Positions 26,319 to 53,390 of a DNA stretch of 64,000 nt are shown in pieces; positions within the stretch are counted from its first letter, which is position 1; each line of letters starts with the position of its first letter. Both the position numbers and the translations under genes were made by a program. Source of the DNA: an uncultured Hyphomicrobiales bacterium (GTDB lineage: Bacteria > Bacteroidota > Ignavibacteria > Kapaibacteriales > UBA2268); assembly GCA_964513465.1 (NCBI GenBank), contig CAZEMR010000004.1, positions 550 through 64,549 on the forward strand. The letters run 5' to 3'. The notes under the pieces were generated by a model. It had not been told where the DNA came from, ran no database searches, and saw only the letters and a program-made list of their open reading frames with translations.

Positions 26319-26423
26319 ATGACCGTTTTATCAGAGCTTACAAATATAACAGATATATATTTCTCAAACAAATTATTTCACTTGTTTTTTACGAAAATAT
26401 ATTTAATATATTGAGCTTATGAA

Positions 26424-27955: not shown

Positions 27956-28035
27956 AATTAATTATATACATTTATTCGCAAAATTATATCATATATTCAA
28001 TCGCCGGGCGGGCCGATTTATTGTTTGGCAATTCA

Positions 28036-28815: not shown

Positions 28816-28991
28816 TTAATTATTGCTTTCTCATTAATTCCGGAAAAACAAAATTAAGCCTTTGCGGGCAATTATGGAAAAAATTTCCCATGAAGCGCAA
28901 TTTTATATATTTTTGTCCTAAGTATCACAGGTTATGAAACATCCGACGCAGTTTGCTGTTATTATTATAATAAAATTTTACGGAATTACAC

Positions 28992-34529: not shown

Positions 34530-37500
34530 CTACGAGCACCCGCTGGTGCCGCCGCAATCCTCGCATACGGTGCAGCTGCCGTTGCGCTTGACCCGCATCG
34601 AGCCGCAGTTCATGCACTGTTCGCCGGTATAGCCGAAGCTGCGCGCGTCGTTGGATGTCGTCACCTTCACCTTTGGCTTATGGCCGTTGCCGTTGACCAC
34701 ACCAGTCGAGAGCGGACTGGCCTGTTCGCCGACTGCCTCGGTCTGCGATGCTGCCGGCGGTTCGGGTTCTTTCGCCGGGGCCGGCTTGCGCTCGGTTTCG
34801 CCGGTGTCCTCCTTATCGCTTTCCTGCGATGGGGGCTCTTCTTTAGTGCCGGATTCCGGAGTATCGTTGTGCTGTTCGTGGCCGTTATCCTCATCGACTG
34901 CCTTGACATGTACGAAGTCCGTACGATTAAGGTAATCATAACCCAGCGAGCGGAATACGTAATCGAGGATCGACGTTGCGTTGCGGATGGCTTCGTGGCC
35001 GGAGACGATGCCCTGCGGCTCGAACCGCGTAAAGGTGAACGTATCGACCAGCTCCTGCAGCGGGATACCGTACTGCAGCGCCTTGGATGCGAGTATTGCA
35101 AAGCTGTTCAGCAATCCGCGGAACGATGCGCCTTCTTTATACATATCGATGAAAATTTCGCCAAGCGAGCCGTCGTCGTATTCGCCTGTGCGGAGGTAAA
35201 CCTTGTGGCCGGATACCATTGCCTCGCGGATATGGCCGTGGCGCTTGCCGGGCAGCTTCGTGCGTTTCGGGCGGCTGACGCGTTCGCTGATTTTCTCCTG
35301 AACTTCGCGGGGACCCTGTGTTTCGTCGAGCGTGTCTTCGTCGCCGAGCGTGACGATTTCGTCGAGGTCTTCGTAGTTCGATGCGCTGAGCGGCTGCGAC
35401 AGCTTGGAGCCCTCGCGGTAGATGGCGATTGCCTTGACCATCATTTTCCATGATTTCATATAAACTTCGCCGATGTCGGTCACCGAGGCCTCGCGGGTCA
35501 TATTGACCGTCTTCGAGATTGCGCCCGAAATAAACGGCTGGGCGGCGGCCATCATCCGCACATGCGCCATGTGGCGGATATAGCGCTCGCCGCGGCGTCC
35601 GCATTTGCTGGCGGTGTCGAATATCGGCAGATGCTCGTCCTTCAGATTGGGCGCACCCTCGATCATCATGGTGCCGCAGACGTAGTCGTTGGCTTTTTCG
35701 ATCTGCTCGTCGGAATAGCCCAATTCTTTAAGTAAATTGAAATTAGGGCTCTGAATACTTTCTTCGGAAAAGCCGATTTTTTTCAGGAAATTCTCGCCGA
35801 GCGCATGTTTATTAAATGCGAATTTAATATCGAATACATCGCCGAGCTGATCCTCGATTTCCTTGATTTTCTCGTCGGTAAATCCTTTTGATTTCAAAGA
35901 TTTTTTGTTAATCTCGGGGCATCCGCGAAGGGTACCGTGCCCGAGGCTGTATTTCTCGATATCCTCGATCTCTTTTTCGGTATAGCCCAGGTGGTTGAGC
36001 GCCTTGCGGACGGAATTATTTACAATTTTGAAATATCCGCCGCCTGCCAGCTTTTTATATTTAACAATAGCGAAATCAGGCTCAATGCCAGTGGTGTCGC
36101 AGTCCATCACCAGACCGATCGTCCCGGTCGGCGCCAGCACCGATACCTGTGCATTGCGGAAGCCATATTCGCCGCCAAGCGTCAGCGCGCGGTCCCAAGA
36201 TTCGCGGGCGGCCTTGAGCAATTGCTCCGGCGCGAGAGATTTATCGATACCCATCGGCTTTATCGTGAGGCCTTCGTATTCCTCGGGGGTCGCGCTGTAT
36301 GCGGCGCGGCGGTGATTGCGGATAACGCGGAGCATCTCCTCCTTATTATCATTGAATTTCGGGAATGCTCCCAATTGCTGCGCCATCTCGGCGGATGCGG
36401 CATACGATTCGCCCGTCAGCAGCGCGGTGATTGCTCCGGCAACTGCCAGCGCCTTTTCGGAATCGTATGGAATTGCGCTTACCATCAATAGCGACCCCAG
36501 ATTGGCGTAGCCAAGGCCCAGCGTCCTGAAATCATAGCTAAGCTGGGCGACCTTCCGCGAGGGGAACTGCGCCATCAGCACTGATATTTCGAGCACTATC
36601 GTCCAGATTCGCACCGCGTGGCGGAAATCGTCGATTTTGAATTCGCCGCTCTCTTCGTCGAGGAATTTCATCAGATTCAGGCTCGCCAGATTGCATGCGG
36701 TGTCGTCGAGGAACATATACTCGCTGCAGGGGTTGCTCGCGTTGATGCGGCCCGACTGCGGGCATGTGTGCCATTCGTTGATCGTTGTGTCGTACTGCAA
36801 TCCCGGGTCGGCGCTCTTCCATGCGCTCATATTGATTTTCTCCCACAGCTCGCGGGCGCGGACTCGCTTGACGGTTTCGCCGGTGGTGCGGGATTTCAGA
36901 TCCCACATCTCGTCGGATTCGACTGCGCGCAGGAAGTCGTTGGTTACGCGCACGGAATTATTCGAATTCTGACCGCTGACCGTCAGGTAGGCCTCGCCTT
37001 CGTAATTCGTATCGAATTCCGAGGAATTAAGCTGGGTATAGCCCTGCTCGACGAGGTTGAGTGTGCGCATTATATAATTAAGCGGCACCCCGCGGTGCAG
37101 AGCCCTTTGGATAAGCTCATTCCGCTTCGGATTGGTTTTGCGATCGGCGCCGTGAGCCAGCGCTTCGTCCACGATAGCCGAGAGGAATTTGGAATTGACC
37201 TTCGAACCGGCCACCAGCGCGGCGACCTTTTCCTCTTCGCGGGCCTTCCACTGGATGAATGCCTCGACGTCGGGGTGATCGATATCGACTATGACCATTT
37301 TTGCTGCACGCCTTGTCGTACCGCCGGATTTGATAGCGCCGGCCGCACGGTCGAAAATTTTCAGAAAGCTCATAAGCCCCGACGAAACGCCTCCCCCCGA
37401 GAGAGTTTCGCCTTCGGCGCGAATATGCGAGAAATTTGTGCCGGTGCCGCTTCCGTATTTGAAGATTCTGGCTTCGCGCAGCGCCAGATCGAATATGCCG

Positions 37501-38084
37501 CCCTCGTTGATCAAGTCGTCGCGGACGGACTGGATGAAGCATGCGTGCGGCTGCGGCCGGGAGTATGCATCCTGCGACTTCTCTACCCTGCCGGTTTCGG
37601 GATTCACATAAAAATGCCCCTGCTTATTGCCGGTGATACCATATATATGATGAAGTCCGGTATTGAACCACTGCGGCGAATTCGGCGCTGCATATTGCGC
37701 AAGCAGAGTGTATGCGATTTCGTCATAAAATATTTTTGCGTCCTCGGGCGAATCGAAATAGCCATGCCGCTCGCCCCACATCCGCCATGTATCGGCCAGG
37801 CGACGCACAACCTGTTTTATTGAATTTTCGGCGCCATATTTTTGTTTGCCGTCTTCTTTGATCGGTTTGCCGTTGTCATCTTTGAGCGGCACTCCTGTTT
37901 TACGGAAATATTTCTGTGCGAGAATATCTGTAGCCATCTGCGACCAATGAGAGGGCACCTCGACGTCGTCCATTTTGAAAACGACCGAGCCGTCGGGATT
38001 ACGCAGCACGGAGGACCTTTTTTTATAATTAAACTGGTCGTAAACATCCGTGCCATCGCGGGTAAATCGTCTTTTAATTTTCAT
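34530..38084 (-). CDS. nrdJ: adenosylcobalamin-dependent (class II) ribonucleotide reductase, long form with C-terminal zinc ribbon
   Basis: 1184 aa. 'MKIKRRFTRDGTDVYDQF...', active-site 'NPCSEYMFLDDTACNLASLNL'. C-terminal 'CMNCGS...CTVCEDCGGTSGCS' CxxC-N-CxxC. No intein blocks detected. Confidence 0.9.
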   Translation of the reverse strand: MKIKRRFTRDGTDVYDQFNYKKRSSVLRNPDGSVVFKMDDVEVPSHWSQMATDILAQKYFRKTGVPLKDDNGKPIKEDGKQKYGAENSIKQVVRRLADTWRMWGERHGYFDSPEDAKIFYDEIAYTLLAQYAAPNSPQWFNTGLHHIYGITGNKQGHFYVNPETGRVEKSQDAYSRPQPHACFIQSVRDDLINEGGIFDLALREARIFKYGSGTGTNFSHIRAEGETLSGGGVSSGLMSFLKIFDRAAGAIKSGGTTRRAAKMVIVDIDHPDVEAFIQWKAREEEKVAALVAGSKVNSKFLSAIVDEALAHGADRKTNPKRNELIQRALHRGVPLNYIMRTLNLVEQGYTQLNSSEFDTNYEGEAYLTVSGQNSNNSVRVTNDFLRAVESDEMWDLKSRTTGETVKRVRARELWEKINMSAWKSADPGLQYDTTINEWHTCPQSGRINASNPCSEYMFLDDTACNLASLNLMKFLDEESGEFKIDDFRHAVRIWTIVLEISVLMAQFPSRKVAQLSYDFRTLGLGYANLGSLLMVSAIPYDSEKALAVAGAITALLTGESYAASAEMAQQLGAFPKFNDNKEEMLRVIRNHRRAAYSATPEEYEGLTIKPMGIDKSLAPEQLLKAARESWDRALTLGGEYGFRNAQVSVLAPTGTIGLVMDCDTTGIEPDFAIVKYKKLAGGGYFKIVNNSVRKALNHLGYTEKEIEDIEKYSLGHGTLRGCPEINKKSLKSKGFTDEKIKEIEDQLGDVFDIKFAFNKHALGENFLKKIGFSEESIQSPNFNLLKELGYSDEQIEKANDYVCGTMMIEGAPNLKDEHLPIFDTASKCGRRGERYIRHMAHVRMMAAAQPFISGAISKTVNMTREASVTDIGEVYMKSWKMMVKAIAIYREGSKLSQPLSASNYEDLDEIVTLGDEDTLDETQGPREVQEKISERVSRPKRTKLPGKRHGHIREAMVSGHKVYLRTGEYDDGSLGEIFIDMYKEGASFRGLLNSFAILASKALQYGIPLQELVDTFTFTRFEPQGIVSGHEAIRNATSILDYVFRSLGYDYLNRTDFVHVKAVDEDNGHEQHNDTPESGTKEEPPSQESDKEDTGETERKPAPAKEPEPPAASQTEAVGEQASPLSTGVVNGNGHKPKVKVTTSNDARSFGYTGEQCMNCGSMRVKRNGSCTVCEDCGGTSGCS

Positions 38085-38536
38085 ACCGGCACCTGATTTA
38101 TATCTAAAATTTTTGAATTATGTCTTTGAAAATTAAATAATTAAATTAAAATATTTTCATTATTCATAGCAGATTTTAATTGCTCAATCTGCGATTTTTG
38201 CAGATAGAAGGACGATAATATCGCCTTTAATTGTTTAAATAAAATATTGCTGGAAAGAGATTCAGCCCGAAGTCAACCTGCGATTTGACAAATATTTACC
38301 TCAATTCATACATATCAGTGCATTCAGCATTCGCCATAATAACCGCAAGGTCTGTTAATAACTTAGCGAATAATCGCTTTCAATATTTTTATCCGGCCAG
38401 TCGGTCATCACCAATTTTTCGATTGTTTTTCCGAAGCGGGGCTAAAATCCCATGCTAACATAGTTAATCATCTTGTCAAGAAAAAAGGAATTTTATCCAA
38501 ATATTATGCACACAAATCATTATATTGACGCACAAG

Positions 38537-38633
38537 TTTTCCACAAAGTTTTCCACATGGGCACTCCGATCCTCTCAATTCTGATTCATGTTTTCCACAT
38601 TTCGCTTAATATTCGTATTTTGGGTTTTCCACA
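38537..38633 (+). promoter_or_regulatory. cluster of four direct DnaA-box-like 9-mers (TTTTCCACA)
   Basis: Exact copies at 38537-38545, 38549-38557, 38591-38599, 38625-38633. Near-box TTATCCAAA at ~38494. Lies in the 600-bp AT-rich intergenic region 38085..38681 between divergent nrdJ and PAP2. Fits the relaxed DnaA box TTWTNCACA. Confidence 0.5.
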
Positions 38634-38681
38634 GCGGTATTCTCCGCAGATGCTAATTTTGGTTAACATAAATATATAATT

Positions 38682-39248
38682 ATGCCCGACTTCATACTGC
38701 AATTCGATACATATTTATTCCATCTCGTCAATTCCTGGATGGCAAATCCGGCGCTGGATTTCCTTATGCCGATCATCACCGATGTTAAATACTGGATACC
38801 TGTCTATATCGGGATGTTCGCGCTGATCGCATGGCGGGGCGGCAAGAACCGCTTCGGCGCGATGTTTGCAATCATGCTTGCGGCTGTGCTTGCCGATCAG
38901 ATTAACAGCAATATTCTCAAGGACTTATTCGACCGCCCAAGGCCCTGCCATATAATGACGGATATCCGGCTGCTGGTGGGATGCGGCGGCGGCCGATCAT
39001 TCCCCAGCTCGCACGCGGCTAATAATTTCGCGCTGGCTACTGTGCTCACATTTTTCTACGGGCGCTGGAAATGGTGGTTCTACTCCGGCGCGGCGCTGGT
39101 GGCCTTCTCGCGGACTTATGTCGGGGTGCATTATCCGCTCGACCTGCTGGGCGGCGCGGTCGTTGGTCTGACCATCGGCTGGCTCTCGATATTGATAATC
39201 ACGCAATTGGGCAAATTATCTCCTAAAATTTTCATCTCCCCCGATTAA
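38682..39248 (+). CDS. PAP2-family phosphatase (undecaprenyl-pyrophosphate/lipid phosphatase-like)
   Basis: 188 aa membrane protein with the three PAP2 motifs: 'KDLFDRPRP', 'PSSHAA', 'SRTYVGVHYPLD'. Confidence 0.8.
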   Translation: MPDFILQFDTYLFHLVNSWMANPALDFLMPIITDVKYWIPVYIGMFALIAWRGGKNRFGAMFAIMLAAVLADQINSNILKDLFDRPRPCHIMTDIRLLVGCGGGRSFPSSHAANNFALATVLTFFYGRWKWWFYSGAALVAFSRTYVGVHYPLDLLGGAVVGLTIGWLSILIITQLGKLSPKIFISPD

Positions 39249-43741: not shown

Positions 43742-43952
43742 ATTTCAATCTCTGGGAATTTTCAAATATCAATATTTTCAATTTAATAAATTAAATTCAA
43801 TAGATAAACTACACTAATATATAAACAGTCCTTATATATATACATCACTCCGCTGGCACGAAAATATTTCCGAAACAGCCAAAATATAGCCGGCGAGACA
43901 ATTTGTGGATAACTGTGTAACCTTTTTTTCAAAATCTTGTTATTGCTATTAA

Positions 43953-44519
43953 ATGAGAAAGAAATACGAAGAATATAGCGACTCCGAGCTGTTCGGAATG
44001 CTTACAAAAGATAAGCAGACAGCAGAGCAGGCCTTCAAGGAAATCTACTCAAGGCATGCCCCGCGGGTGTACGCATATTGCAGAAGATTCATGGGCAACA
44101 ACGAGGAAGCCCAGGACGTATTTCAGGAAACATTTGCCAAGTTCTTTGAGTGCGCATCTGACGATCGCGAAATGACCAATACCCCGGGCTTTCTGCTCAG
44201 GATAGCCAGAAATCTCTGCGTCAACCTGAAGAAAAAAGAGCGCAGTACGATTTCGTTCGAGGATTATATGGCAGTCAATCGCGACAGCGGACGCGAACAG
44301 GACGAACTGCTCGATCTGATCAAAATGGCGCTCGAGCTATTGCAGCCGGAATATCGCGAGATGTTCATACTCCGCGAATACGAAGGATTCTCGTATTCAG
44401 AGATTACTGACATCACCAACGAGCCGCTCTCGACTGTTAAGATCAGAATTTATCGCGCAAAACAAAAAATTCGGGAAATACTCCAGCCATATCTGGCGGA
44501 GCTTTCTAAACATGGATAA
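43953..44519 (+). CDS. RNA polymerase ECF-type sigma-70 factor
   Basis: 188 aa with region 2 ('VFQETFAKFFE') and region 4 HTH ('EMFILREYEGFSYSEITDITNEPLSTVKIRIYRAKQKI'). Confidence 0.85.
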   Translation: MRKKYEEYSDSELFGMLTKDKQTAEQAFKEIYSRHAPRVYAYCRRFMGNNEEAQDVFQETFAKFFECASDDREMTNTPGFLLRIARNLCVNLKKKERSTISFEDYMAVNRDSGREQDELLDLIKMALELLQPEYREMFILREYEGFSYSEITDITNEPLSTVKIRIYRAKQKIREILQPYLAELSKHG

Positions 44520-53128: not shown

Positions 53129-53390
53129 AATGAGATCACGATTTATTCATATAAATTTAATATATTCGAAAATATTTCTTGCATGATTTTTCAAAATGCC
53201 AAGAATGAGTATATCAATAATAACAATATTTTGGATAAATCATCACAATTTTTAGTTTATATATACTTCCGAATTTACCTGAATTCATGCAGATTCAAAA
53301 AATTCCACAAAATGTTTTGCCGGGATTGATAAATTATTATTTTTGTAGCAGAAGTTTGGCATAATTTTTTCATATGGGCAATCTTTTTTT

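Follow-up and report, generated by a model that had tools for sequence, protein, structure and literature searches.

The window, a 64-kb stretch of DNA analysed here as a whole, contains nrdJ, a gene for a class II (adenosylcobalamin-dependent) ribonucleotide reductase (RNR) of 1184 aa (34530..38084, - strand; Pfam Ribonuc_red_2_N, Ribonuc_red_lgC and TSCPD), and, divergent from it, a gene for a PAP2-family phosphatase of 188 aa (38682..39248, + strand; Pfam and NCBIfam). Both genes and their divergent arrangement had been named in an earlier note on this DNA and were confirmed by Pfam. The families nearest to the PAP2 protein were the undecaprenyl-diphosphatases, with scores under their NCBIfam cut-offs. 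The two genes are separated by a control region of 597 bp (38085..38681, no strand assigned; 33.0% GC) which, as the note had stated, is the longest non-coding stretch in the window. The same note had set this gap against a genome of ~58% GC and had proposed its AT-rich 38100-38300 tract as a DNA unwinding element. Neither statement held: the window is 51.0% GC, its other intergenic regions of at least 150 bp are mostly 23-36% GC, and the tract, at 26% GC, has the same composition as other intergenic DNA in the window. Because intergenic DNA here is typically as AT-rich, the low GC of the gap and of the tract is not distinctive. An identical stretch is present on a contig of the Kapaibacterium-like metagenome-assembled genome (MAG) GCA_046542925.1, and several window proteins carry T9SS sorting domains, which fit a Bacteroidota lineage (NCBI places Kapaibacterium in Bacteroidota).

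The gap contains six DnaA-box-like 9-mers, four perfect and two near, within 141 bp and in a single orientation. The four perfect copies of TTTTCCACA that had been reported at 38537, 38549, 38591 and 38625 were all recovered, lie on the + strand and are the sole copies in the window. The near-box noted earlier, TTATCCAAA, was likewise found at 38493-38501, and we identified an additional relaxed box, TTATGCACA, at 38504-38512 that had been overlooked. The consensus TTWTNCACA is therefore matched by the four TTTTCCACA copies and the one TTATGCACA, with TTATCCAAA as a near-box. These elements are arranged as an imperfect double box TTATCCAAA-ta-TTATGCACA with a 2-bp spacer and one mismatch per box (38493..38512, + strand; TTATCCAAAtaTTATGCACA), a perfect double box TTTTCCACA-aag-TTTTCCACA with a 3-bp spacer (38537..38557, + strand; TTTTCCACAaagTTTTCCACA) and two single perfect TTTTCCACA boxes (38591..38599 and 38625..38633, both + strand). 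The true repeat unit is the 10-mer GTTTTCCACA, and in the tandem pair it is AAGTTTTCCACA. The perfect boxes lie 49-145 bp from the PAP2 ATG and 453-549 bp from the nrdJ ATG, an asymmetry that the earlier note had not considered.

Chance is a poor explanation for these counts. Shuffles of the whole window contained a mean of 0.34 copies of TTTTCCACA, and none of 100 reached four. From the composition of the gap itself 0.008 copies were expected analytically and ~0.014 by shuffling, and not one of 20,000 dinucleotide shuffles of the gap held more than two. In cyanobacteria TTTTCCACA is the accepted species-specific DnaA box (PMC6323995), and in E. coli it forms part of the mioC double box to which DnaA binds (PMC11317965). 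Measured from start to start, the six boxes are spaced 11, 33, 12, 42 and 34 bp apart; each of these distances is at most 2 bp from a multiple of 11, and four of them differ from it by no more than 1 bp. This pattern, seen after the fact and in the window alone, would place the boxes approximately on the same side of the helix. In the tandem pair the 5' flank, AGGATCGGAGTGCCCA-TGTGGAAAA (38558-38576, - strand), resembles the E. coli R1 flank AGGATCGCACTGCCC-TGTGGATAA (L095 137-161, E. coli oriC, left of R1), with 13 of 15 matches and one inserted base. As this flank is not common to the Kapaibacterium-like relatives, the likeness is probably coincidence.

We next placed the boxes relative to candidate promoters, all of whose positions are predictions. 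A sigma-70-type candidate for nrdJ, TTGACA-16-(TGt)TAGCAT (38452..38479, - strand), has 10 of 12 consensus matches and a TG before the -10 element, and the imperfect double box lies 13 nt upstream of its -35 element. In three related loci (L001, L003 and L089; L numbers denote the loci compared) a TTG-type -35-like element similarly occurs 13-21 nt downstream of the promoter-proximal box. On the other side, a candidate PAP2 promoter with a Bacteroidota-type -7 motif (TAnnTTTG), TAATTTTG (38654..38661, + strand), stands 20 nt upstream of the PAP2 ATG, and the last box of the array ends 20 nt upstream of this -7 element. Further TAnnTTTG copies (26341-26348, 27979-27986, 28849-28856, 2678-2685 and 53338-53345) lie 20-45 nt upstream of tRNA-Gln and several protein-coding genes in the window, which suggests that the organism may use Bacteroidota-style promoters; the total for the window, 32 against 30.7 in shuffled sequence, is not above chance.

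The predicted nrdJ promoter implies a leader of ~360 nt, a putative AT-rich leader without significant RNA structure (38085..38446, - strand). A structured leader was rejected, since the folding z-score of the 372-nt nrdJ-sense leader was -0.44 against shuffled sequence. Rfam gave zero matches in 38085-38681 at the gathering threshold or at E-values up to 10, the cobalamin riboswitch (RF00174) included. Paired 16-bp NrdR boxes were absent from the gap, where the best match had 5 of 14 mismatches, equal to shuffled sequence, and they were also not found in the close relatives of the window. The putative leader contains TCAAYCTGCGATTT twice (38184-38197 and 38273-38286, 89 bp apart) and a GCAGAT/ATCTGC motif three times between 38166 and 38208; neither repeat was found in the relatives. 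A decayed gene of the SIMPL family within the gap was rejected because tblastn matches were scattered, with E > 0.01 and on mixed strands. A decayed PAP2 duplicate was judged too weak a candidate: 34-39 nt resemble the PAP2 start at 74-76% identity (blastn E = 0.003, blastx E = 0.16, in a tiny search space). The 39-nt match, at 74% identity, pairs 38260-38298 with 38679-38717, with the translation QPEVNLRFDKYL similar to MPDFILQFDTYL, and may be a short duplication remnant or chance.

To place the array in an evolutionary context we gathered nrdJ loci from genomes (5), metagenomes (80) and close homologues (8), of which 82 relatives were usable for box density. In the 600 bp before nrdJ, perfect TT[AT]TCCACA boxes had a density of 0.55 per kb; within the same 82 loci the remaining non-coding DNA held 0.044 per kb and the coding DNA 0.017 per kb. 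The density upstream of nrdJ was thus ~12x that of the other non-coding DNA, although the latter is more AT-rich. An unbiased 8-mer scan ranked the DnaA box, as TGTGGATA/TTATCCAC, first upstream of nrdJ (P ~1e-19), followed by NrdR-box k-mers and the -35 k-mer GTGTTGACA. Double boxes with at most two mismatches numbered five in the 80 kb upstream of nrdJ in the relatives and zero in the other 647 kb. The upstream neighbours of nrdJ and their orientations differ widely among these loci, indicating that the boxes travel with nrdJ and not with one chromosomal site.

The closest relatives have NrdJ proteins 70-72% identical to that of the window. In L003, L087 and L089-L094 (~124 kb), 12 of 13 perfect boxes were intergenic and upstream of nrdJ or of a SIMPL-nrdJ pair. 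TGTGGAAAA was the single 9-mer common to 9 of 10 nrdJ control regions of the Kapaibacterium-like relatives; it was always on the nrdJ sense strand, was often extended to TTGTGGAAAACTT, and was present both with PAP2 upstream (L087, L091-L094) and without it (L003, L089, L090). The divergent PAP2-nrdJ synteny is kept in L001, L087 and L091-L094. The syntenic loci L087 and L091-L094 have one or two perfect boxes each, 15-116 bp from the PAP2 start and nearer to PAP2 than to nrdJ. The six-box array of the window exceeds that of any relative, and a perfect box is missing from several close relatives (L001, L007, L008, L009, L013 and others).

Distant nrdJ loci (L034, L036, L039, L048, L054, L058, L075, L082 and L085) share a fixed module of TGTGGATAA, 45-75 bp, TTATCCACA, ~41 bp, an NrdR box, TTGACA and a second NrdR box, located at about -330 to -90 from the nrdJ ATG. 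The proximal box is TTATCCACA or, in variants, CTATCCACA/CTATTCACA, and is followed by a C/T-rich spacer; the first NrdR box abuts TTGACA and the second (TAGCTATATGTAG) lies over the -10 region. As read from these motifs, the DnaA/NrdR module of the distant relatives parallels the logic of the E. coli nrdA promoter. Some ORFs of 123-154 aa that lie upstream in distant relatives were considered as NrdR candidates, and this identity was ruled out by NCBIfam.

Other features of the related loci concern the genes and leaders around nrdJ. In several relatives the gene immediately before nrdJ, separated from it by 33-135 bp, belongs to the SIMPL family and encodes ~245 aa (L090 9215-9958, L093 2188-2925, L094 2137-2880, and also L007, L008 and L012); the window has no SIMPL gene. 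A DnaA box upstream of SIMPL in L090, L093 and L094 suggests a SIMPL-nrdJ operon; near the SIMPL genes of L007, L008 and L012 there is no perfect box. In three loci (L021 3400-3666, L014 360-632 and L046 3517-3797) the nrdJ leader carries a cobalamin riboswitch aptamer (RF00174; 61-77 bits, which exceeds the gathering score) in sense orientation, 200-240 nt before the start; none is present in the window. Since reports of B12 riboswitches usually concern B12-independent RNRs, a riboswitch on the B12-dependent nrdJ was unexpected; in these three loci it may be an ON switch or part of a separate upstream transcript. In L003 a cobalamin riboswitch (2083-2299) is followed by two genes (684 aa and 362 aa), a unit that looks like a B12-uptake operon and ends 518 bp before nrdJ. 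This riboswitch-led, putative uptake unit would place B12 acquisition next to a B12-dependent RNR in a Bacteroidota MAG.

Taken together, these observations make it likely that a DnaA array in the divergent promoter/operator region sets the transcription of nrdJ, coupling class II dNTP synthesis to initiation. A DnaA-regulated nrdJ promoter was one of the two readings offered in the earlier note, and it is supported here in two ways: the boxes recur upstream of nrdJ despite differing neighbours, and the tandem pair is arranged like the double box to which DnaA binds upstream of E. coli nrdA (PMC11317965). We infer from the motif that DnaA is the protein on the boxes. Under this model DnaA would bind just upstream of the nrdJ core promoter, most likely as an oligomer of DnaA-ATP that assembles cooperatively from the double boxes. 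The two double boxes, with their 2-3 bp spacers, and the two single boxes would jointly form the operator for nrdJ, whose transcription would be set by the level and nucleotide state of the initiator, and the dNTP output of the class II reductase would thereby be coupled to replication initiation, as at E. coli nrdAB. If E. coli is a guide to the sign of regulation, transcription would be repressed when DnaA-ATP is high and activated when occupancy is low (PMC8203912). PAP2 is probably co-regulated, as the last box abuts its candidate promoter. Several observations count against an operator for nrdJ: the array is larger than a simple operator requires, the perfect boxes are far nearer to the PAP2 ATG than to the nrdJ ATG, relative to nrdJ they point the other way from the boxes at E. 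coli nrdA, and several close relatives have no perfect box.

The closest known parallel is the E. coli nrdAB promoter, in which the -35 element is preceded by DnaA boxes (Tuggle & Fuchs 1986, Augustin 1994, Olliver 2010; reviewed in PMC8203912). Stringer et al. found that in vivo E. coli DnaA occupies double boxes almost exclusively, each made of two direct boxes separated by 2-3 bp (PMC11317965). The E. coli nrdA double box is TTATCCACAaagTTATGCACT (PMC11317965), as the E. coli sequence itself also shows. The two systems share a double DnaA box with a 3-bp 'aag' spacer in an RNR control region, upstream of a core promoter (a predicted one here), and presumably also the logic by which initiator status governs dNTP supply. 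They differ in that nrdAB encodes a class Ia enzyme and nrdJ a class II enzyme, in the number of boxes (about three compared to six here), in the orientation of the boxes relative to the gene, and in the distance to the ATG (~150 bp compared to ~450 bp here). Moreover, the window has no NrdR boxes, its host is an uncultured Bacteroidota, and its circuit is predicted from sequence. A DnaA site upstream of E. coli nrdDG (PMC11317965) indicates that DnaA control reaches a second RNR class within one organism, although nrdDG is class III and the present locus class II. The array also resembles cyanobacterial oriC (DoriC 10, PMC6323995) in having the identical TTTTCCACA variant as direct repeats; cyanobacterial oriC clusters, however, usually adjoin dnaN and coincide with skew signals, and neither is true here. 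As with E. coli datA, DARS1 and DARS2 and the B. subtilis DnaA-box clusters (PMC2533591), several high-affinity boxes lie together in a non-oriC intergenic region, but those loci act on DnaA availability or nucleotide state whereas the conserved link here is to one target gene. At datA and DARS2 the boxes are accompanied by IHF or Fis sites.

A second point of comparison is NrdR. The NrdR-box model, reportedly that of Rodionov and Gelfand (2005), is said to cover NrdR-controlled nrdJ promoters of the Streptomyces nrdRJ type. Our distant relatives are like such promoters in pairing NrdR boxes that flank TTGACA with upstream DnaA boxes. The window and its Kapaibacterium/Ignavibacteria-like relatives are unlike them, having no recognisable NrdR box.

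Several other functions could be served by the same boxes. Their excess over what regulation requires, and over the array of any relative, keeps alive the idea that the array primarily controls DnaA itself, in the manner of datA, DARS or the B. subtilis clusters, with any effect on nrdJ secondary; high-affinity double boxes are also a feature of the datA and DARS loci in E. coli ChIP-seq (PMC11317965). What the relatives conserve, however, is one or two boxes tied to nrdJ and no large cluster, and we consider this account improbable as the primary function. A titration role and a promoter role are in any case compatible and not alternatives. The proximity of the boxes to PAP2, in the window and in L087 and L091-L094, might instead mean that they regulate PAP2 alone and that they are close to nrdJ only because the synteny is conserved. 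The position of the last box just before the TAATTTTG motif agrees with this, as does the orientation, since the boxes read TTTTCCACA on the PAP2 sense strand as they do at E. coli nrdA. Yet the boxes stay upstream of nrdJ or SIMPL-nrdJ in loci without PAP2 (L003, L089, L090), and dozens of distant loci with unrelated upstream genes keep their nrdJ boxes, which leaves regulation of PAP2 alone only a slim chance. It is still less probable that some other factor than DnaA recognises the 10-mer repeats, or that these are the functionless product of a recent local duplication. The extended conserved motif (T)TGTGGAAAAC(TT) does exceed the 9-bp box, and the identical 12-mers AAGTTTTCCACA look like a tandem duplication; against this, the relatives have canonical TTATCCACA/TGTGGATAA boxes at the equivalent place, and the motif is the sole conserved footprint across otherwise unalignable regions.

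The other reading in the earlier note was a titration locus, considered above, or a chromosomal origin, oriC. At such an origin DnaA would oligomerise on the array and unwind the adjoining AT-rich DNA. Six co-oriented boxes, including a tandem pair with a 3-bp gap, and AT-rich DNA on both sides of the array are compatible with this. Four of the six boxes also formally fit the rule for the basal unwinding system (BUS; PMC8287927), in which a box or box pair is followed, after a spacer no longer than 16 nt, by three or more NAN triplets (DnaA-trios) and then by an AT-rich unwinding element. The rule recovered E. coli R1 as a control, but the perfect tandem pair of the window fails it and 43% of random positions in the shuffled region fit it as well, a background that renders it uninformative in AT-rich DNA. 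The AT-richness is the same as in other intergenic regions, and no box oriented like E. coli R1 adjoins the 38100-38300 tract. Genes linked to origins were also missing: the 64-kb window holds no dnaA, dnaN, gidA, par or rpmH, and no origin-linked gene, dnaA and dnaN included, was found up to 10 kb away in both directions in L087, L089 and L090. The check suggested in the note, GC skew and gene-strand bias, was run on the 64 kb and revealed no switch at the locus. The skew side coefficient was -0.005 +/- 0.008 overall and -0.015 +/- 0.025 at third codon positions, and on both sides most genes are on the - strand. Skew in the 10-kb flanks at L087, L089 and L090 was inconsistent across loci, with local gene effects dominating. 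Melioribacter roseus, a complete genome of the Ignavibacteria class, has a predicted origin that falls between dnaA and dnaN and coincides with the GC-skew switch (PMC3534657). Given also that the syntenic relatives hold just one or two boxes, and that the boxes accompany nrdJ into unrelated genomic contexts, the oriC reading is unsupported; unwinding on this array is barely credible and a chromosome origin at the locus very unlikely.

DnaA control of nrdJ transcription, which we favour, would extend a theme known from other reductases. DnaA control of RNR has been proposed for B. subtilis and Caulobacter. It is established for the class Ia enzyme of E. coli (PMC8203912) and indicated by ChIP-seq for class III (PMC11317965), and the literature that we searched contained no example of DnaA control of a class II nrdJ. 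Judged from motifs and their conservation, this is most likely a known type of circuit in a new enzyme class and lineage. The locus and the ~90 related loci suggest that DnaA coupling extends to the B12-dependent class II RNR across several uncultured lineages. For Kapaibacterium-like bacteria, in which NrdR boxes were not recognised, the DnaA boxes are the only recognisable nrdJ operator and offer a concrete regulatory prediction for organisms without genetics. The locus is also a caution for origin-prediction tools, for which DnaA-box clusters beside nrd genes can be false positives.

A broader role of the array, beyond that of an operator, is in our view unlikely: it might be a datA/DARS-like locus in Kapaibacteriaceae or, less likely, a dnaA-distant origin, and it might put PAP2 under DnaA. 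If the last were true, a DnaA-controlled PAP2 lipid phosphatase would link initiation to envelope lipid metabolism. Elsewhere in the window, a perfect canonical DnaA box, TTGTGGATAACT (43903-43914), has extended flanks as in the nrdJ boxes. An ECF sigma-factor gene (43953-44519, + strand) follows 41 bp downstream; the box is on the sense strand of that gene and, by its motif and position, may be a second DnaA target.
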